Below are positions 36,550-60,647 of a stretch of DNA of 64,000 nucleotides, one piece after another. Location: contig OX597819.1 of NCBI GenBank assembly GCA_951406725.2, positions 19,716,001-19,780,000 on the forward strand. The letters run 5' to 3'. The DNA is from Octopus vulgaris. Taxonomy: Eukaryota. The notes under the pieces were generated by a model. The model searched no databases. It was not told where the DNA came from and was given only the letters and a program-made list of their open reading frames with translations. A program made the position numbers and the translations under genes. Within the stretch, counting starts at the first letter, position 1. The number at the start of each line of letters is the position of its first letter.

Positions 36550-37485
36550 GTTGTTTGCCGTAGACGCGTTCAAAAGGGGTCTGTATTTTGTAATAAAGAG
36601 AGTCTCTTTACTGATTCGTTGGCTCCAGGTTGTATCGTCCCTGAATTGGTAGAGGGGAAAATCCTGAAGCTTGGATTTTTGTTATTGGTGCAAATATCTA
36701 TGAGTTGGCTAAATGCTACTTTTCTGTTTTGGGGAATTTTGATCTGGGATCTGTAGACTATTTTTGTTTGGCCTATGCATTGCTCTTGACACCTGGAGCA
36801 GGTTACTGCATATATCAGGTTCTCCGAAGCACATGTGAAGTCGCTTTTCACCGTGAAACGTTGTTCCTGTTTGAAGGTGAACTCTGATCCCTGAATTAAA
36901 TTGACGCATTTCCACCAGTTGGGTCTCCGCACTTCTTACTGTAGCTTCTCTGTTGTTGAGCGTATTAGGACTTGTGTTAGGAGACTTTTCATAGATTTGG
37001 GCTGTCTCTTGCTTTTTATTATGGTGTGTGTTTCGAGGATTAAGTTCATTCTGTGGTCCTTTTTAAGCAGGGGTATGTTTTGGAGGATGGTGTCGAAGGC
37101 TTCATTGTTGAGAGGGTTGTGTGCGGAGATGTATGGTAGGGCTTTTGGCTGTAAATCTTTCTTTAATTTGGGATGTCTGAGTTCCTGGATGTTGCGTTCT
37201 AGGGCACATTGAAAGCATATGTCAATTAGTGAAGGTGAGTAGTTCCTGGTGATGGGTGTATCTTTTAGTTCATGTAGTCGTGTGTCTCTGGTATTTGCAT
37301 TAGAAACTATAGTACACATCCTTGTTGCTAGGTTGAAGGAGATATTCATTCTGATGTGTCTGGAGCGGCATGAGTTGAACGGTAGATATTGCTTGGAATC
37401 TGTATGCTTATAGTATATATCTGTTTCTATTACGTTGTTAGATTTCTTAACGAGTATGTCGAGGAAGGGATGTTGTTGCTGTAGA
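36550..37485 (-). pseudogene. Decayed Penelope-like element (RT thumb + GIY-YIG), related to the 58688-60328 element
   Basis: ORF pieces 36936-37676 and 36570-36932 contain PFLDILV, ETDIYYKHTDSKQYLPFNSC, LPYISAHNPLNNEAFDTILQNIP and FTCASENLIYAVTCSRCQEQCIGQTK, with stops and frameshifts. Confidence 0.92.
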
Positions 37486-38239
37486 GATTTGACTGAAACT
37501 AGTAGTTTAACCTGTATACGGTGCTGAATAAATATGACAAACCCACTTAATAACCATTTATCATCTTTCAGACGTAAAAATATAGCTACTAGTACATATT
37601 TATCTAGTATGATCTGAGAACTTAAGGAAAGTATACGGAGAGTTATTCTCAATTGGATATAGTGCGGAAAGCGCAACCATCATATAAAGATAGCAGATAC
37701 CGATGCAAACTTTGATCTATGGAAAGTTATGAGATTTTAAAGCACAGAGACAACAATAATAATCTAATAAATAATAGATTAGTCCTTAGGGTATGCTGCA
37801 TGCATAGTATCGCCCGCACATCTAAATATTTTGGAAACAAATAATATAATATCCATCATACAATAATTTGATTCTAGAAAATATCTTTCATATCATACCA
37901 TCCAGTGTAGCAAATAATATATATATTATATATAACGTTGCCCTTTTATAAAACCTGCCAGTTTAGTCTGCATTCATCCTCCTCGATGACTGCTCTGTTT
38001 GTTCTTTCAATTCCGAGACTTTCTTCCCTATTACTCATAATAAGTATAATTATAATGAATTATCAGATCGTACGCCACGCTTAGGCATACTCTATACTCT
38101 CCTACGAACTATATCATTCTACAAACATGAACGACTGTGAATGGAATCTTGTTTTATAAAACCGCATCCAAAGATATATTGATCTTCATTTACTTCGCAA
38201 TTTGCATTGTTACGAACACCTCGACCTATCCTTATAATT

Positions 38240-45150: not shown

Positions 45151-46607
45151 TTTAACCTAAAATGCTTTTCAAGACTTTGGTTTGTAAGTCCTACCAAACC
45201 CATCGTATTTGCTTGTTCTAGCATATTTAGATTATTACCTTTTCGCGTCGCTCTCCAGCAGTCTACGAGGCGCGTCGATCAACAAAAGATGTAGAGTTCA
45301 AAAGATGGCTTCATGAACCCTTCGGGTTAACACCTGGTGATTTCTAATATCCTGGTACTAATAAGCGAGTGTATCGTTGGCAAGTATTTGTGAACAATTA
45401 ACGAGAATATATTATAGAGTGATTAGGGAAAATAGTTGATTAAAATAGGAGAAAAATAACGAGCGAATTTATCTGACGATTTAAATTACGTCTTTTATTT
45501 TGCTCATACTTTGAGAATACGGACGTCTCTGGAATAAGTACTACTTCTGGCCTACATATTCAATGGCTCCCTTCCATACTCTAGCTGGGTTGACCTATCG
45601 AATTTTTCTCCCAGTCAATGACATCATTGAACCATTTAAACATTTCCTTCACTGCTCATTTGCTGTTATGTGTTCTAATTATATGAATACACATCCGTGA
45701 AAAGCAATTTCAGAAAGACCAATCTACTTAAATGTAACGTAATGTGTTGCTTTTAGTAGTTACATTTAACCTGTAGTGAATACACTAGTGAGTGGCTTGT
45801 TTGACGCAGCAGGTAGACTCGGTGATAGACTAACAAACCTAACGTAGTTGCAGATCTGAAAGAACGAATGAGACACCCTACCTGCTTTATTAAGCACTTA
45901 CACAATTTTCCGATTAGTTCTTCAACACGGAATAGCGATAGTTAATTACGTATCCCGGAGAGAAACAGGTATTTAATCAGGCTTTGAAATACATACACGA
46001 GAATAAACATGAAGTATATTTAATAAATATTAGTAGCTTCCTATATAAAAATTTATCATGGACGCAAGCCGGATTTTGGTGAGATATTACGTAATAAAAT
46101 CATCGTGATGCTATTTGAATCATGTAGGGTAGATGAATATGAAAGTTATCGAGTGAGTTTCATATAATTTACGATGCTACATTTGTAAGTACGTCAGTGC
46201 CATTTACTCATCAATGACAACTTGAAAGCATTCTCAGAATACCTATTAACGAATATCCTGTTTCACCTCTGCATCTCTAAGATGTCTACGCGTACGAATC
46301 TACTGCGTTCTGATCAGATTGTTGGAATCGAATACATTCTCTGTAACATAATACGTGCAGAAAAACACATTACTATATCTGCAAAATACAAAATGTATTT
46401 ATCATACACACATAAGTACAAAAAAAAAAATTACAAAAAACAAGTACGCGCGCAACAAATATTTATATATAGAACTACAGGCAGACAAATACGCACATAG
46501 AGATATACACGTAAACACATACATATATGGATGGATATAAGAATGTATCAAAGTATATTCGTACCTAATATAGAAATATAAGTGTAATTTACATACAAAC
46601 AAACATA

Positions 46608-46672
46608 TCTATCCCCCTATATATCTATCAATTTATATATCTATCTATATAACTATCTATCTATCTGTCTGT

Positions 46673-46736
<64 letters not shown>

Positions 46737-46753
46737 TTATCTATCTATCTGGC

Positions 46754-46784
<31 letters not shown>

Positions 46785-46962
46785 CTATCTACCTGTATGT
46801 CTGTCTCTCTGTCTATCTATCTATGTATCTATCTATTTATCTATCTATCTGTCTATCTACCTATCTAACTCTCTAGCTATCTTTCTTTCTTTCTATCTAT
46901 CTATCTATCTACCTATCTATCTATATATCTATCTATCTATATATATATATATCTATTTATCT

Positions 46963-47010
<48 letters not shown>

Positions 47011-47152
47011 CCTGTCTATCTGTCTCTCTGTCTATCTATCTATCTATGTATCTATCTATTTATCTATCTATCTGTCTATCTACCTATCTAACTCTCTAGC
47101 TATCTTTCTTTCTTTCTATCTATCTATCTATCTACCTATCTATATATCTATC
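46608..47152. repeat. (TATC)n array with an internal ~220-bp duplication
   Basis: The variant block acctgt..ctaactctctagctatctttctttctttc occurs twice (~46790-46930 and ~47010-47150). Confidence 0.9.
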
Positions 47153-47197
47153 TCTTTCGTCTTCCTTTTGTGTGTAAAACACAACTTTCGATAGGGA

Positions 47198-47602
47198 CAT
47201 GCTCAAAATAGGCTGTATAAATGTAAGTGGCTTGTGGTCGCCTTGGATACAAGGCTTCCTGTAAAGCGACATCAAGTCACAAAATCTGCAATTCTACACA
47301 GACAACACATTTGTGACTTGTACACTTAACTTAGATAAGAAACATAGGTTACTGGAAGCTGAAGGCGTCTTTCACGGCATGCCAGGCCTGTAGGGACCGG
47401 ATTAGCACATTAGTTAAGAGAGCATTTACGGGTGTCATCATCAAAAACAGCAATTAAATTAGAATTGATTAGGTACAGTAAGGCCCTAGCAGTAGACCGT
47501 AATAGAACAGAGGGAGACCTAGTTAAGAAATTAGAAGAGGCACTTAGACCTGACATCGCGTCCAACGTACTGGCAACGAGGTTGGCTCTCGACCAACATT
47601 TC
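47198..47602 (+). pseudogene. Tx1/L1-clade ORF2 fragment (endonuclease start plus post-EN linker), internally deleted
   Basis: MLKIGCINVSGL (APE N-terminus), GYWKL, and AIKLELIRYSKALAVDRNRTEGDLVKKLEEALR. Confidence 0.7.
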
Positions 47603-47619
47603 ATTTGTCAGAGCTATAT

Positions 47620-47881
47620 ACTCTTTCTTTTACTCGTTTCAGTCATTTGACAGTGGCCATGCTGGAGCACCGCCTTTAGTCGACCAAATCGACCCCGGGA
47701 ATTATTGTTTGTAAGCCTAGTACTTATTCTATCGAACTATGTTTGCCGAACCGCTAAGTTCCGGAGACATAAACACACAAGCATCGTTTGTCAAGCGATG
47801 GTGGGGAACAAACACACACGCAAAAACATATGCACACACATACATACACACAAACACACACACACACACATACACACACAC

Positions 47882-47931
<50 letters not shown>

Positions 47932-48092
47932 GACGGGCTTCATTCAGTTTCCGTCTACTAAATCTACTCACAAGTCTTTGGTCGGCCCGATGCTATAGTA
48001 GAAGACACTTGCTCAAGGTGCTAAGCAATGGAACTGAACCCGGAACCATGTGATTGGTAGTCAAGCTACTTACCACACAGCCACTCCTGCGG
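47620..48092 (-). mobile_element. SINE family A
   Basis: Full-length reverse-complement match. Confidence 0.9.
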
Positions 48093-48247
48093 CAATGTGA
48101 CAATTAGTTGGTTGTCTTAAAACTCAGAGCTTTATATCTGTGTTTATATCTATATGCACACAGGTGTGTGAGTATGTATATAGATAGGTATACGTACATT
48201 TATTGGTGGTCATATTATTATTATTATTGTTATTATTAATTAATATA

Positions 48248-48465
48248 TATTGCGGAGATGTACTTGCATAGCAAGTGACCTGATCTGCGATCGTGTGCTG
48301 GAACGAAAACAATTGCAGCGTGGAATGTGCTTATAAGCCACTTAAGAAACACAAAAACCGTTAGATTCACTTCAACATTTAAATTCAATTTGTCAAAATA
48401 TTTTCGTCACTTTGAGGCCGTGACCTGTTCACTGACAAAATCTCGTGCTGCATCTTTCTAGAAGA
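48248..48465 (-). mobile_element. Probable solo PLE pLTR fragment carrying the G3-C8 hammerhead-like motif
   Basis: Non-microsatellite block starting at a TA-rich site and containing the motif. Assignment to a PLE is inferred. Confidence 0.45.
48389..48439 (-). ncRNA. Minimal hammerhead-like motif, G3-C8 variant
   Basis: Minus strand: UUUGUCA - GUGAACA - G - GUCAC(ggccucaaa)GUGAC - GAAA - AUAU - UU - UGACAAA. Perfect 7-bp stem I, 5-bp stem II, palindromic stem III (AAUAUU). Confidence 0.7.
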
Positions 48466-48507
48466 TTACAAATATAGATACTACCGAATACTTATATATA
48501 TATATAT

Positions 48508-48588
<81 letters not shown>

Positions 48589-48670
48589 TTATTTCTTATA
48601 CTCGTTTCAGTCATTTGACGGCGGCCACGCTGCAGCACCATCTTTAGTCGAGCAAATCGGCCCCAGGATT

Positions 48671-48744
<74 letters not shown>

Positions 48745-51053
48745 CTGTATGCTTCATGCATAGGTGAGTACTGGTGAGTTTTCCAAGTGCACCAACATTT
48801 AACACTCTACTAATCTAAATGCACGACGTCCGCCAACGTACTTACTTTTGTTTCTACGTCTAGTGCATGTGTCGTACTGGCGGGTGATTATAATGTACAC
48901 GACAGCAAACCTTCCACAACTACGTTTGTACATAACTACAAAACATACATATATACATACTGCATTTATGTACATATACGTACGTACACATTTGTATGTG
49001 TGTGCTTTTCTTTATGGAGTTGCAGCTTATAGTGATTCTGTTATAAATATATTTTATTGCACTCTGTTCAGTACATATTTCGGTTAATTATATTTCTCGC
49101 CTGTGTTTATGCATAAAAATGTGCACGTAATGTTGTCGTTATTCCTGGGAATATCATTAGTGAATTATTATAGATGTTGTTAGTATTGATCACAACAATA
49201 AAAGCGACAACAAATGAACTATGATTCGGTGAATAGAGCAACCTTGATGCGTTTGTTTAGCCAACATTACGTATCACCGTATCAACACACTGCTATATGG
49301 ATTTTCAAAGAAGCTACCTTAATTAAGCACCTAAAAACCACAAATCGACAATCATCAAGAGCTTCTTCGTTGTCACAAATTAATTGGCTGCTATAAATGT
49401 CAAAAAAATCCCACTGATCCTCAGACTGACTGTGTCACTCTCTTGCATGTCACGGTGTCCTTGATACTGTTTATTTTTCGGTTTTACTTTTTTTTTTTAT
49501 ATATTTTTGTTCGTTTCTGACTATAACTATACAACGTGATGCAGCTGAAATATTGAATTAATTATTGACTAGCTTCTTAGATTCCTTACTAGATCCAACA
49601 ATGCATTGACTTTTTATTTCATTTCTAAATGTATACTCATGTGACAATGCTTCATTGAACTACATACTGGTGAAAATATTTTTACAAACAGACGATCGAT
49701 TTCAGATCAAATAATTTCGGTACAAATTCTAGAAAGGAAAACACTTTCATTGGTTGTTTTCTTTGAATTATCTCTCTATGTATTCATGCATAATTAGATA
49801 CAGAGCTTTGTTTTTCTTCCCGTACGTATAATCATCTTTTTTTCCCTCTTCTTCAATGTTCAATGTTTCTCTGAAGATATTTCCGGAAAGGAAATAAAGG
49901 AAAACAGGAAAGAAAATAAACGTCAATATCAACGTCACTTAAATCAGATCCTAATGAATTCTCATGGCATCTGTGTTGTTATTTTGTGACAGAAGCATAG
50001 TTCGTTGATCAGGTCTATTTGTGTTCAGTATTGAAAACGAACGATTTACTTATATTTATTAAGAAGGCAAGCGTGGAACTACAGATCATAAATCAGATCT
50101 CACTTTGAACGTCAGCTCGGAATTAAACCCCTGCTTATTGTATAAATTGTTCAACACGAATTGCTTCCTATTTCACTTAATGTGTAGACTTTAGTTTTGG
50201 TGAATGTTGTTGCCTTTCTTTTAACTGCTCTAGATGAAATGATAGAGAACTGATCGCGGGAAAAATTATGTATGATATAATTATATAACTTTATGTTCTG
50301 GGATTAAATCGTACGCATGTAGGCAGATACTACACACACACACACACACTCACGCACAAACACATACACACACCATCGAGAAAAAAATTCTACTTACTCG
50401 TCGAAATATTCCTGGCAGCTGAAAGGGAACTCAAATTATGAAATAAAAGTGGAAAATTCTTCTGCAACAGAGGACCTTACGTAAACGGTAAATAACTATT
50501 TCAGTTACACAGATAATAAAAGAGTATGCTATTGAATGCTATTAATACCTCATTTCACTTCAATATTTGAATACAATATCAGGAATTTTAGGTAGTTCTT
50601 GGCCACATTTCCAATTTTCTCTGGAAATTTCTGTATGATGAGTATTAATCCGAGTGGCGCATGAAGTACAACGCTGCCAGTAGCCCCATCTTTTACAAAC
50701 CAAGCTACAGGTCAAATGGAGAACCATATTGCACTCTCAGGGAATACTTTCTGTGCAGCCAATGATCTTGGCATCTTTATTGCCAGCATGGAGGAACTCT
50801 GAGGTTTGAGACGTAGATGTTGAAGGGATGTTATAGAAAAGATCTCTGCTTTCTACACAAGGTCGATTCTGACTAGAAAGAAACATTCTGGAAGTAACCG
50901 CCTGAATAACTAATCTTCGTATGTCTTTTTGATGGCTTGTCCGTCAAATGTCCAATATTTTATATCTCTCTGTGAAAGGTATAAATCAGAGATGCGTCGA
51001 TAGCAGTCCTCAAGACAAGTGTGTGTGTGTGTGTATGTGTGTGCGTGTGTGTC

Positions 51054-51183: not shown

Positions 51184-53139
51184 GTTTCCGGTCGTGGAGT
51201 TGACTTCTTGTCACGTGAAAGTGAGGACGTGAGCTTTGAGTTCCGTCCTAAAAAGAAAAAAAGAACAAAAACAGAGAAGGTTATCGAGGTAGGTGATTTT
51301 GTTTGTTGTGAGCTGGGCATAATTTATTGCGTGCGAATTATTTTTACAGTAAATTGTGCCCAGCTCTGGGACAATTTCGCCTGCTCTCGGCGGCTGCTGT
51401 TTTTGTGTATTGAAAATTTATTGGATTTATTTTTGATGGGGCGTATCCTCGCACGAATAGAATCCGTTGCTGTTGCAGTTACCGTTCGCTGTATTGTGTT
51501 TGAATTACTGGACAACAAAAAAGATTTATGCCAAGGAACCTATCCACATAAGGCCGGGATTACCTGTTGGCCAAATGGATTTTTGCTGTGTGAACTGTTT
51601 TTTTTTAATTTTCCGTTTATCCTTTCTGCTTTTTTCTTTCCTTATGAACTACTAATTAATTTTTGGACTTACTATGTTTTTTTTAACTTTTGTGTACCTT
51701 TTTCACATTCTCTTGACCTTTGGACATTTTTTTGGAACTCTTAAGACATTCTTTTGCACATGGCCAAAAAATAAACGTTGCCGCTGCTTTAGAGTGGGAG
51801 GTGGTCCCACCCAAACAGTGGATTAAAGATCTTGAGAAGAGGACGATGGTACTACGGACCTATTCTAGGTCGTGTGGTGCCATCGCCCTCTTCGACAAGA
51901 GCGTAATAGAGAAAGAGTTGGCAGACTAACCTGCCAACTATATAATTTATCTCACGGGGGACCAAATTTGCAATGGTGTGGTTGCTGATTGGTGCCACCG
52001 AGGAAGCTGGCAGATTTGCCAGCGAGCCCCTTGAGGGAGAAGAAATTTTGTTCCTCCTCACTTATTGTGGAAGGAAGAAAAGAAGAGCCTGGGTGTCCGG
52101 GCTGACTCCGGGTACGGGGGCGCGATGGATCGAGAAGACCACCTGGCGAGGCCTGGGGGAGAGCGGGCCCAGGTTATTGAGTTTGAAGATTACTCCTGCG
52201 GTCGACTGGGAGGGGTCAAAGGCAACTTTGATCCTGTGGACCCCGGTGGCCGTGGGAGACATGATGTTTCCAGATTTCCTAAACATGGCCGGGTACAGGT
52301 ACCCGGTGATAATTGAGGGCCGCCCCCAAGTGTCACCTGTGCATGGAGCCTGGCCATATCAAAAGGAATTGTCTAGGGGGTCGTGGTGGGGCCCTGGAGC
52401 ATGAGAAAAAGAAGGTGTCCGCCGCCCCCTCATTGTGGGGGGGACGGTGGAAGTCGTGGAGGAAGTTGCCTCCACGAAAAGAAAAAGAAAGGTAATCAAC
52501 AATAGTTGCTCACCAAAGAATTTTCAGGCGGCGGAGGAGCAGCCCTCTGCTCCCGCAGGTTCAAATAGAAAGAGGAAAAAGAGGAGCAGGAGACGGTCGG
52601 CAGATGTTCCTGGGCCGCCGACGGAGCCGCAGGTGGGATATGTGCCACCTGCGGATAGGGCTCCGTCAGTGGGACTTATGAGGTCCCTTCCAGTGAAGAG
52701 GAGGTGTTTGTCCTCTTTTACCACGAGGGAGGGACAGTAAGTTTTTGGACGGCTCGGTTGACCGAGAACGTGTGTACTCGGTCTGCTCAAGTAGTGTGAT
52801 ATGAAAAATATGAATGCAGCTTTCATCTTGGCATTTGAAAATTTGTCAGAATTTTTTCAGTTACTACCTCTGCAGCCACCTTTGACAAGGAAGAATTTGC
52901 TCTCCTCATTGCAGGCCCCGACTTATTGATGCAGAGTTGTGTGCAGGCGGCAAGTCACTTTGCTTGGGGGACCTGACAAAGAGAATTGTTGTAAGAAACT
53001 TTGTATTCGAGGGTTTGTCGGTCGGTGGGCGCCGACATCCCTCACATTCGTATCATTTTGTTTCATTTCATCTCATCTTGTCCATGTCCAGCCCACAAGC
53101 TTCTCTTTGTAAGGCCTATATGGCCAATTTAATGAAATA
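51184..53139 (+). mobile_element. Tx1/L1-clade LINE, internally deleted (ORF1 relic plus 3' end, ORF2 largely missing), with 15-bp TSD
   Basis: TSD aagaagcttgcttcc at 51169-51183 and 53140-53154; GC-rich ORF1 relic; A-rich 3' end aatgaaataa. Confidence 0.8.
51760..52740 (+). pseudogene. Disrupted LINE ORF1 with a CCHC zinc knuckle
   Basis: Frameshifted ORFs 51720-51929, 51973-52404, 52313-52495 and 52435-52740 contain ..YPVIIEGR-PKCHLCMEPGHIKRNC (CX2CX4HX4C), followed by a basic low-complexity tail. Confidence 0.8.
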
Positions 53140-57812: not shown

Positions 57813-57868
<56 letters not shown>

Positions 57869-57929
57869 GAAATGAAGAAAATGCTGACAAATAATTGAAG
57901 TAATTTAAGTAATTTAATTAGGTGAAAGT

Positions 57930-57976
57930 TCTTTTTACCGGTTGCGCATTTGTTATGCTTATCAAAATATAAAAGA
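57930..57976 (-). ncRNA. Second copy of the U3-A8 / GCAA hammerhead-like motif, in the 3' pLTR (PLE sense strand)
   Basis: Reverse complement of 60448-60494 (ctttttaccggttgcgcatttgttatgcttatcaaaa). Confidence 0.6.
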
Positions 57977-58687
57977 GAGATTAGAGTCTGTCTCTTATAT
58001 GTGAAAAAAGAGGCTCCAGAGTTGTTTGGGATTTGCTTGGTTTCGCTCCTAAAATTTTGATTGGTCATTATGAAGGGGTCACGTGAATGTTTGAATGGAA
58101 GTTGGTGTTGGGGTAAGAAAAAAGGCTCCAGAGAAGTTAAAATTTGGCTAGTGTCCCGCCTAAAATTTCTTATTGGCCATAATAAAGAGGTCACGTGAAT
58201 GTTTAGAATTTTCGAAAATAGTGTTGTTGAAAATTCTTATTGTTCAGGCTGGTCAGTAGACGTCATGTGGATATCTTAAATAGCTTTTTAGCGCGTAGTT
58301 AGGGAGTGTATTTTCCGCTTGACTGGATAAGTAAGTTCGTTTAGAACAGGGAGAGCTGTATGTATGTATGTATGTGTGTGTGCGCGCGCGCGTGTGTGTG
58401 TTTATATGTATGTTGCGGCGCGCGCGCGTGTATATATGTGTGTGTGTGTGGGTACAATTTTCAATATTTATAGTTCTGCTGGCCTTGTGCCTGTATCGGG
58501 AAGCAACGTATTTGTGTGAAGTCAATATTTACAGCCATTTCCAAAAAATAGTGTTGGATGTTTTGCACCCGTATTCAATTATGTGTATGTGTGGAACCAT
58601 ATATTTGTGTGTGTCATGGTGTTAATATCTGGGTAAAGGTGTGTGTAGGGTGTGTGCAGGTGTAAGTGTGTTTGTTGTGGGTTCGTG

Positions 58688-60328
58688 TTAGGGGCATGTG
58701 TTTAGAAGTGGTCTGTATTTATTAATAAGGTGGGATTCCATGGTTATTCGCTGGGTATGAGTGGCATTGTCTTTAAATTTGTAGAGGGGAAAGATTCTAA
58801 AATTGGGATGGAGTTGTGCGGCACAGGTATCAATATGTGCACTAAATGCTATTTTTCTATATTCCTGTATTATTATTTGGGATCTGTGGACAGTCATGCG
58901 TTGGCGGAGGCTATTTTTTGTTTGGCCTATGTAGTGTTCATTACAGCCCGAGCAAGTTAAGACATATACTAGGTTTTCTGATGCGCATGTGAAGTTGTGT
59001 CTTACTGTGAAACGTTGTCCTTGTTTAAAAAGGAATTCCGGACCTTCTATTAGGTTGATGCATATACCACAGTTGGGTCTATTGCATTTGTTTACTGTGG
59101 GTTTAGTTGTTGTGGTTGGCAGTACTTTGGCATTTGTTAGGATGGTTTTCAATGATTTGGGTTGCCTTTTGCTCTTTATGATTTCGTGTGTTAGGAGGAT
59201 TTGGTTCATTCTATGGTCCTTTTGTAATACAGGAATGTTCTGGAGGATGGTGTCAAAAGCTTCATTGTTGAGGGGGTTGTGTGTAGAGATGTATGGTAGA
59301 GTATGGGGTTTCGATGTAACAGGTTTAGGGCGTCTAAGTTCCTGCGTGCTGAGTTTTAGGGCGCGTTGGATCCCATTGTCAATTAGTGACGTGGGGTAAT
59401 CCCTGCTTGTTAATGTGCCCTTGAGTTCTTGTAGACGTAAGAGACGGGTGTTTTTATTGGAGACTATAGTGCAAATTCTCTTGGCTAAGTTGTAGGGAAT
59501 GTTAATTTTAACGTGTCTAGGGTGGCATGAATTGAAAGGGAGGTATTGCTTGGAGTCTGTGGGCTTGTAGTATATGTCTGTTTCTATTTTTTTGTTGTGA
59601 ATTTTAATGAGGATGTCGAGGAAGGGAATTTGTTGAGGGCTGTATTCCATTGTGAAAATAATGTTTGTGTTGAGCCCATTTATAAGAGTGTGAAATTCGT
59701 TAAGCTTCTCGACGGTTTCGGGCCAAAGGATGAAGCAGTCATCAAGATATCTCTTCCAGTTCTTCTCTATGTGTGTGTGGAGAGTGGTGCCAAATTGGTT
59801 AAGAACGTTATTATAGAGGGTGATTTCCAGGTATCCCATGACTAAGTTGGCGTAAGTGGGAGCTGTTTTCGTTCCCATTGCCGTCCCTGATTTCTGTCTG
59901 TAGAATTTGTTGTTGAAGGTGAAGAAATTATTCTCTAAGATGAATTTGAGTCCTTCTAAAATAAATTCCTTTTTGATGCGGTGTGGGAGTTCGTTGGAGT
60001 AATTATCCAGCCAGAATTGGATAGCTTCTATTCCTAGGTTGTGGGGGATGTTGGAGTAAAGATTGACTACATCGAATGTTACTAGCAGGGTTTGTTCAGC
60101 AAGAAGTGTATTGGGGAGGTGGTTGAGCATATCTAGATCGTCCCTTATGAAGCTTTTAATGTGTTTGAGGAACGGCTTGAGAAGGGTATCAATGAAGTTG
60201 CTAAGGCGGTGGGTTTCGCAAGCGGGACCTGCTATTATAGGTCTCAATTTGAGGTCATTTGGTGAGGGGACATTGATTACAGAGTTTGTGGCTTCCTTGC
60301 ATGTTCTTACCCCAACACCAACTTCCAT
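58688..60328 (-). CDS. Penelope-like element polyprotein (reverse transcriptase + GIY-YIG endonuclease), 5'-truncated but uninterrupted; probably Neptune-type
   Basis: 546-aa ORF with PLE RT motifs (LRPIIAGP, TFDVVNLYSNIP, QKSGTAMG, WKRYLDD, IPFLDI, DIYYKPTD), a Cys-rich linker (CNRPNCGIC) and a GIY-YIG domain (NLVYVLTCSGCNEHYIGQT..LRQRMTVHR). The first ~9 codons, including the ATG, come from the inverted pLTR. Confidence 0.95.
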   Translation of the reverse strand: MEVGVGVRTCKEATNSVINVPSPNDLKLRPIIAGPACETHRLSNFIDTLLKPFLKHIKSFIRDDLDMLNHLPNTLLAEQTLLVTFDVVNLYSNIPHNLGIEAIQFWLDNYSNELPHRIKKEFILEGLKFILENNFFTFNNKFYRQKSGTAMGTKTAPTYANLVMGYLEITLYNNVLNQFGTTLHTHIEKNWKRYLDDCFILWPETVEKLNEFHTLINGLNTNIIFTMEYSPQQIPFLDILIKIHNKKIETDIYYKPTDSKQYLPFNSCHPRHVKINIPYNLAKRICTIVSNKNTRLLRLQELKGTLTSRDYPTSLIDNGIQRALKLSTQELRRPKPVTSKPHTLPYISTHNPLNNEAFDTILQNIPVLQKDHRMNQILLTHEIIKSKRQPKSLKTILTNAKVLPTTTTKPTVNKCNRPNCGICINLIEGPEFLFKQGQRFTVRHNFTCASENLVYVLTCSGCNEHYIGQTKNSLRQRMTVHRSQIIIQEYRKIAFSAHIDTCAAQLHPNFRIFPLYKFKDNATHTQRITMESHLINKYRPLLNTCP

Positions 60329-60432
60329 TCAAACATTCACGTGACCCCTTCATAATGACCAATCAAAATTTTAGGCGCGAAACCAAGCAAATCCCAAACA
60401 ACTCTGGAGCCTCTTTTTTTCACATATAAGAG
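60328..60432 (+). promoter_or_regulatory. Putative pLTR Pol II promoter (E-box, CCAAT, E2F-like and TATA-like motifs)
   Basis: TCACGTGAC, CCAAT, GGCGCGAAA and CATATAAGAG in order, ending ~30 nt before the hammerhead-like core. The E-box/CCAAT/E2F block is tandemly duplicated in the 3' pLTR (58005-58092, 58118-58204). Confidence 0.45.
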
Positions 60433-60447
60433 ACAGACTCTAATCTC

Positions 60448-60494
60448 TCTTTTATATTTTGATAAGCATAACAAATGCGCAACCGGTAAAAAGA
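60448..60494 (+). ncRNA. Minimal hammerhead-like motif, U3-A8 / GCAA variant, in the inverted pLTR
   Basis: UUGAUAA - GCAU(aacaa)AUGC - GCAA - CCGG - UA - aaaaga. Stem II is perfect, stem III is palindromic (ACCGGU), stem I is weak and U/A-rich. Confidence 0.6.
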
Positions 60495-60592
60495 ACTTTC
60501 ACCTAATTAAATTACTTAAATTACTTCAATTATTTGTCAGCATTTTCTTCATTTCCTTTTTTATATATCACCACTCGTGTTCGACATCTCCT

Positions 60593-60647
<55 letters not shown>

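Follow-up and report, generated by a model that had tools for sequence, protein, structure and literature searches.

The minus strand of the window (the whole 64-kb stretch of Octopus vulgaris DNA that was analysed) contains a sequence with the layout of a hammerhead ribozyme in which the core residues 3 and 8 are exchanged, raising the questions of whether the reversed pair is a product of decay or the established state of a lineage and whether a motif of this kind cuts. The order of parts proposed for 48439-48389 in the initial annotation (helix I, GUGAACA, an extra G, GUCAC/GUGAC, the palindrome AAUAUU and U17) was recovered, and the motif was found to lie within a short insertion derived from a Penelope-like element (PLE).

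Layout of the motif and of the insertion

The features of the insertion, all on the minus strand, are as follows, with the basis of each in parentheses.

48249..48455, minus: whole insertion, the ~205-nt 5' end of a PLE transcript (92-94% identity to the best dispersed copies)
48440..48455, minus: leader between helix I and the likely transcription start at the A of AGATGCAG, 48455 (pile-up of the 5' ends of copies)
48433..48439, minus: 5' strand of helix I, UUUGUCA (sequence; pairs covary between families)
48426..48432, minus: core G3-U4-G5-A6-A7-C8-A9 (GUGAACA), with G3 at 48432 and C8 at 48427
48425..48425, minus: extra G between A9 and G10.1 (identical in all sister families; passages of PMC4209133)
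48406..48424, minus: helix II, 5 bp, GUCAC-GGCCUCAAA-GUGAC, with a 9-nt loop (two CpG-type changes relative to the family)
48396..48405, minus: G12-A13-A14, palindrome AAUAUU and U17 (sequence)
48389..48395, minus: 3' strand of helix I, UGACAAA (sequence)
48249..48341, minus: codons 1-31 of the PLE ORF (family MAYKHLPRCNCF...), homologous to the N-terminus of the sister ORF of L147, MTIPKYNNICF...
about 48309-48253, minus: optional PLE 'tail', the last ~57 nt

The insertion contains the leader, the hammerhead and the first 31 codons, is followed by AT-rich sequence, and spans the part of a full unit (L150) that reaches from the pLTR to the tail. The window copy has an A where an extra G precedes the leader in other copies, and the ATG of the PLE ORF is changed to GTG. 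Common short interspersed repeats flank the insertion at 47930-48090 and 48600-48670, with several further copies in the window, and a GC-rich region (48%) at 51700-52900 contains broken frames resembling the first ORF of a LINE-type element.

The core pattern matched once in the window and in none of 100 shuffles, and a descriptor allowing any 3/8 pair returned 48389-48439 as the single site in 64 kb. Residues U4, G5 and A6, A9, G12, A13 and A14, the A15.1-U16.1 pair and H17 are all present in both the window copy and the family, while G3 and C8 stand in place of the C3 and G8 of the literal consensus (CUGANGA). The motif is solo and not arranged in short tandem units. The palindrome AAUAUU can form helix III only between two copies, closure within a monomer being predicted to cost ~5.4 kcal/mol, and the cut is predicted between 48396 and 48395. 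Folding of the window motif was unremarkable (z = -0.86), the minimum-energy fold was not a hammerhead, and an Rfam scan of 46000-51000 at E<=5 returned no hammerhead, only microsatellite-driven miRNA matches. Support for the motif is drawn from comparison between families instead of from the single copy.

The perfect stems had been taken in the initial annotation as an argument against decay. However, stem II reads GUCAC/GUGAC in the window and GUCGC/GCGAC in the family, a difference at two CpG sites that change singly as often as together and are not clearly coupled (68/5/5/2 of 80 copies; about p 0.1 by hand), and the argument from perfect stems is not supported. In predicted folds the probability of helix II was 0.04-0.49 for the window copy versus 1.0 for L150, and G3.U17 was predicted to lengthen helix I into an inactive register. 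The two CpG-type changes are thus predicted to misfold the window copy, which is most likely a dead insertion, one stub among thousands. The extra base after A9 was confirmed, but the special parallel drawn between it and the CUGUNGA-A family did not stand, since the base is common to all sister families and, according to passages of PMC4209133, a base between 9 and 10.1 is a conserved trait of PLE minimal hammerheads. The same passages give the palindromic helix III as a known trait of these hammerheads.

The 3-8 pair in the repeat family and its sisters

The insertion is one copy of a dispersed ~205-nt repeat (3,208 candidates, of which 40 were scored, the best being 91-94% identical). An exact 18-mer around the core occurred 7,728 times in the genome and its reversed control 0 times, while the same context with C3 occurred 32 times, as 28 C.C, 2 C.U and 2 C-G. 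With one scaffold pattern G3-C8 was counted 5,905 times, C3-G8 851 times, G.G 216 times and C.C 27 times, so that copies with the Watson-Crick pair G3-C8 are to be set against 243 with G.G or C.C. Among 80 copies chosen by the downstream motif, a selection unbiased with respect to the core, 76 had G3 and 73 had C8. Contigs of four runs (four organism labels) contained no alternative letter at position 3 or 8 above 8%. The pair was also found in 69 of 95 members of the older N7=C family, and it persisted across several subfamilies that differ in N7, loop II and palindrome. In a tree of 35 copies, built from the sequence behind position 9 with positions 3-9 left out, one branch (99/94) has all 14 rows of the G3-C8 families on one side; three chosen rows that the pattern missed are absent from this tree, and its root is a midpoint only. 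The simplest reading of these sequences is a single swap that was retained across several subfamilies. The genome copies, which the initial annotation had suggested as a check, therefore give G3-C8 as the family state instead of CUGANGA, with the stems kept.

Departures from the pair are unequal in frequency. G.G was eight times commoner than C.C and was present in all loop-II subfamilies, and C8 was changed to U or A in 175 copies on a different pattern. Three of the five G.G loci with a readable inverted arm have G8 in both arms. Change of C8 to G (216) lies far above change of G3 to C (27; L247-L266), and in the sisters C3-to-G is above G8-to-C (3 vs 0 of 100); the C8-to-G excess may be due to RT error or a context hot spot. 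A C3.C8 locus (L063) that had been considered as an intermediate lineage was ruled out, its relatives being G3-C8.

A sister PLE found through its ORF protein (54% identity, with a homologous N-terminus) has C3-G8 at the homologous place and keeps U4-G5-A6, G10.1-C11.1, GAAA, the extra G and the ends of stem II. Canonical CUGANGA cores occupy the same position in 851 copies of sister PLEs, and among the matches listed C3-G8 was present in 87 of 100 from the GTCG sister families (371 in all). When L150 and L147 were compared without the hammerhead pattern, U4, G5, A6, G12, A13, A14 and A15.1 were identical. Pairs of helices I and III, taken from family majorities, differ between families with pairing kept (A-U to G-C, U-A to C-G, and A-U to G-C or G.U). 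At H17 the G3 families have U, and two C3 families have chiefly C; G3 could mispair with C17, for which a hint is given in PMC3884650, there as 'data not shown'.

The z-score, the silence of Rfam and the predicted misfolding of the window copy are what would be expected of a chance or decayed look-alike. Such a look-alike would hardly be common to thousands of copies, occupy the position of the canonical cores in sister PLEs and possess helices that covary between families, and this reading is very improbable and, by sequence comparison, largely refuted. The same comparison argues that the natural, family-wide G3-C8 variant of the PLE minimal hammerhead is real.

The joint exchange of residues 3 and 8 had further been taken in the initial annotation as evidence against random decay. 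In one young sister family, whose 1,312-aa frame is intact, A9C is fixed (CUGAUGC-G) in 3,477 copies (4,328 minus 851; L159-L188, e.g. G000:C1:496324, and L147:7686-7740), while its older members retain A9. Another sister family, which is old and has a loop II of 5 nt (L486-L505; n = 55), has U3.G8 in 25 copies, C-G in 10, C.A in 9 and U-A in 4. The abundance of the A9C and U3.G8 families indicates that core damage is no bar to spread of the element, and since sister families carry non-paired or broken cores the double swap alone is no proof of selection for cleavage. Judged from these families, the constraint on the core in this PLE clade is loose. U3-A8 or A3-U8 sister subfamilies, suggested at first by 40 pattern-picked matches, were not confirmed; U3-A8 accounted for 2 of 100 among the matches listed and 4 of 55 in the old family and is best read as decay. 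Within the patterns used, which cover only families with GTCRC/GYGAC stems, C3-G8 was the only other Watson-Crick 3-8 pairing confirmed as a family state.

The parent element and the ends of its copies

Copies extended in the 5' direction (976) led to a PLE and, together with its ORF, caused a fixed-length SINE or MITE to be dropped as the source of the repeat. The linkage to a PLE ORF that had been suggested as a check was found: in 28 of the 29 loci L117-L145 the core follows the ORF at a distance of 962-1,141 nt. A script count that included short flanks and sister families gave 40 of 53 rows. A whole unit of 4,261 bp (4.26 kb) in the order hammerhead-ORF-hammerhead is present in L150, with a stop and frameshifts. 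Its ATG is 92 nt behind G3, the motif returns ~1 kb behind the stop, and the pLTR, which has the hammerhead inside, is from a partial tandem. The motif lies 15 nt behind the common 5' end of the copies, which also bear the marks of PLEs, namely inverted 5'-truncated arms, (TA)n or AT-rich flanks and a one-sided tail. Two 3' ends ~57 nt apart were observed, 50 of 100 copies having the tail and 50 of 100 lacking it. Ten dispersed copies (L300, L332, L333, L335, L336, L339, L355, L369, L374 and L375) share one inverted junction, indicating that the inverted composite itself multiplied.

A stop-free frame of 1,025 aa in L146 matched GIY-YIG (CCHH) with an E of 1.8e-5, while Pfam RVT_1 gave no match to this ORF; the RT is assigned from the motifs YVDD and GAIG, from weak RVT_1 matches of homologs and from the name given by the source for the top match. 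The top protein relative that bears a name is labelled Octopus vulgaris. The linker before GIY-YIG (CQSNCAVC, 8 residues, C) is by eye a short CX2-5CxxC linker like that in the Nematis rows of Fig. S2 of Craig et al. 2021. Between RT motifs 3 and 4 (L146:2171-5245, minus strand, residues 470-605) there are ~68 extra residues relative to the C. remanei row of Fig. S1 in that paper; the long insert sets this ORF apart from the Nematis rows in Fig. S1 and occupies the position that the insertion-in-fingers domain has in telomerase, here in a PLE with a C-terminal endonuclease. Metagenome relatives were found at two loci, both of which stop at the ORF without the 3' UTR.

Another PLE is present in the window at 57840-60600, with a 5'-truncated RT and GIY-YIG frame of 546 aa (58688-60328, minus strand), inverted ends and a tail that also ends in ACATCTCC. 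The hammerhead descriptor gave no match on this element, and a decayed relative of it lies at 36570-37679. Its ORF was rejected as the partner of the motif, being of another family with a long Neptune-like linker, and a locus in which an ORF of this type abuts the 3' UTR of the G3-C8 family (L082) reads as a nested or chimeric insertion.

The ends of copies were compared with the cut site in the first 100 of 6,909 copies taken by the downstream motif, with the arms of inverted pairs counted separately. The 5' end was 1-30 nt upstream of G3 in 70 copies, 37 of them at -22 to -19, and at or behind G3 in 23; the alignments of the remaining 7 run further upstream, about 3 of them via microsatellite only. 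One copy in 100 started at the cut site, as the result of an internal deletion. Junctions inspected by eye among the first 100 of the 300 rows listed formed no clear peak (16 at +36, 10 at +37 and 7 at +35), and 4 of the 16 at +36 fit helix-I microhomology. Of 22 non-inverted copies, in which one locus accounts for two rows, 14 have an extra G before AGATG, compared to a background of 21% (p 1.5e-5); for all non-extended copies the figure is 35 of 68. This G is presumably the cap copied at the transcription start. The template of the inserted copies was probably uncut RNA, and their ends carry no information on what becomes of RNA that has been cut. Directly upstream of the 5' end shared by the copies (L081-L110), CTAAC...TTTCTCAG resembles a 3' splice site with its branch point, and it overlaps the likely transcription start as well; neither a shared upstream exon nor spliced copies were seen that would point to a spliced-leader origin of the 5' pile-up.

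Possible activity of the G3-C8 motif and relation to known hammerheads

The motif is best explained as the pLTR hammerhead of an abundant PLE lineage with G3-C8, the sisters having C3-G8, and as a likely self-cutter, slow and in need of a second copy or of the element's protein (probability about 0.5, from sequence). This explanation is favored because G3-C8 (5,905) exceeds G.G (216) and C.C (27), persists in the older N7=C family (69/95) and falls on one side of the 99/94 branch, and because the sister C3-G8 is at the homologous place, helices I and III covary and the core is behind the ORF in 28/29 loci. It is further favored by the partial rescue obtained with C3G/G8C mutants, the U17 of G3 families, the shared-junction arrays described below and a phage sequence. 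The last (L519; IMGVR_UViG_3300019776_000919, 98395-98549), the one convincing case among 30 matches of which 2 passed the filter, is a type I hammerhead with G3-C8 and helices I, II and III of 5, 5 and 10 bp. Against the explanation are the A9C family (3,477 copies) and the U3.G8 family, the lack of a clear copy-end or junction peak at the cut site, the inactive register predicted for G3.U17, and the finding that, of 9 Xenopus retrozyme dimers, just 1 was cleaved in vitro (bioRxiv 10.64898/2026.07.22.740005).

A slow, assisted cut of this kind could operate as follows. Transcription would start at the capped A of AGATG, and the RT of the element would initiate internally at one of two sites within the first ~100 coding bases, yielding tail-less and tailed ends, and run to the cap, leaving ~205-nt stubs from uncut RNA. 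The reversed Watson-Crick pair would keep residue 8 placed with its 2'-OH still acting, and the palindrome AAUAUU could pair as helix III between two copies. A rare cut after U17 might then strip the RNA of its capped leader or release unit-length RNA from tandems.

The thriving A9C and U3.G8 families and the uncut template of the copies speak for a rival reading in which the motif is a catalytically silent relic. Its fold would be kept for binding or positioning of the PLE protein, or would overlap an internal promoter, and G3-C8 would have arisen once via mismatches that were tolerated and been retained for the stability that pairing lends to the fold. In the portions of PMC11167929 consulted, hammerhead mutants of an anole PLE insert unaffected and no RNA-seq ends are reported at the cut site. 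According to PMC8557442 the Naiads, which lack canonical hammerheads, spread all the same. Loss of catalysis is harder to reconcile with the identity of the catalytic residues U4, G5, A6, G12, A13, A14 and A15.1 between L150 and L147, and with the change of both 3 and 8 to a Watson-Crick pair that remained stable over subfamilies despite changes of N7, loop II and palindrome. We hold a silent relic as the less likely, tentative alternative.

Tandem arrays of 166-175-bp units with the G3-C8 motif and one shared junction were found at six sites on three contigs, namely C2 (30 units), C22 and four sites on C28 (L536, L546, L547, L549, L550, L552 and L553). The junction consists of the tail-less end, (TA)n and AACCTTATT, with a one-letter change at one site, and spans different loop-II subfamilies; arrays on C26 and C29 have other junctions. 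Recurrence of one junction on C2, C22 and C28, and the layout of non-LTR retrozymes in passages of PMC7229834 and bioRxiv 10.64898/2026.07.22.740005, are consistent with a motif that is efficient in tandem form and supports a retrozyme-like offshoot, in which transcripts of the arrays would be cut into 166-175-nt units and the PLE enzyme would re-insert these after circularisation. Such a circular route depends on cutting, but the arrays could also have spread from linear multimeric RNA produced by internal initiation or at the DNA level. The unit moreover includes the (TA)n target and non-element letters, and only 79 of about 7,700 pattern matches are in arrays, making such an offshoot an improbable account of the motif.

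If the G3-C8 motif cuts, nature uses the reversed core pair of the laboratory rescue mutants, and searches for CUGANGA or U3-A8 miss part of the hammerheads, about 7,700 copies in this one genome. Whether it cuts or not, the clade brings together, in close relatives, cores that are intact, swapped or damaged, a natural collection that makes the purpose of PLE hammerheads directly testable, the A9C family being a natural test of the need for cutting. A more far-reaching proposal, which the present sequences leave doubtful, is that an animal retroelement lineage relies on a natural active G3-C8 hammerhead missed by CUGANGA searches, that a G3-C8 retrozyme spin-off spreads via RNA circles, and that the core series C3-G8-A9, C3-G8-C9, U3.G8 and G3-C8 in one PLE clade of one genome tunes the cutting rate between removal of the leader and copying of uncut RNA.

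Only engineered G3-C8 and natural U3-A8 were found in the literature searched, some figures, supplements and one key paper being outside its scope, and no natural G3-C8 hammerhead. The natural G3-C8 pair appears to be new; the PLE minimal hammerhead type, the extra base and the palindrome are known. The available passages on metazoan PLE pLTR hammerheads (Cervera and de la Pena 2014, PMC4209133) describe the same type I layout, extra base, G10.1-C11.1, palindromic helix III region, pLTR location and thousands of solo copies; the core covariation there is U3-A8 (S. mansoni), in contrast to G3-C8 here, and the supplement passages contain CUGA only. Natural 3-8 covariation is likewise described in the consulted part of Perreault et al. 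2011 (PMC3088659), but as U3-A8 and not G3-C8.

The closest experimental parallel is the hammerhead of Poseidon_Ac (PAc), as presented in sections of Frangieh et al. 2024 (PMC11167929). It lies near the start codon, the RT starts internally at two sites and produces a tail, uncut RNA is the template, and the identical swapped pair is present in a mutant. This hammerhead cuts only with protein and is partly rescued by C3G/G8C, in agreement with the general partial rescue by this double mutant (PMC8495972). The swap is engineered there and natural here, PAc belongs to another PLE clade, and the tail is ~57 nt here. The C-terminal EN+ PLEs of the Nematis and Neptune type (Craig et al. 2021, parts of PMC8557442) resemble the present element in having RT followed by GIY-YIG with CCHH, the CX2-5CxxC linker, inverted 5'-truncated copies, a one-sided tail and (TA)n targets, while the C. 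remanei row has ~68 fewer residues between RT motifs 3 and 4 and DKG instead of DKS. Non-LTR retrozymes, in the portions of PMC7229834 and bioRxiv 10.64898/2026.07.22.740005 consulted, match the layout of the 166-175-bp arrays elsewhere in the genome. They differ from the window copy, which is a solo PLE stub, and from the array units, which carry the minimal G3-C8 motif.
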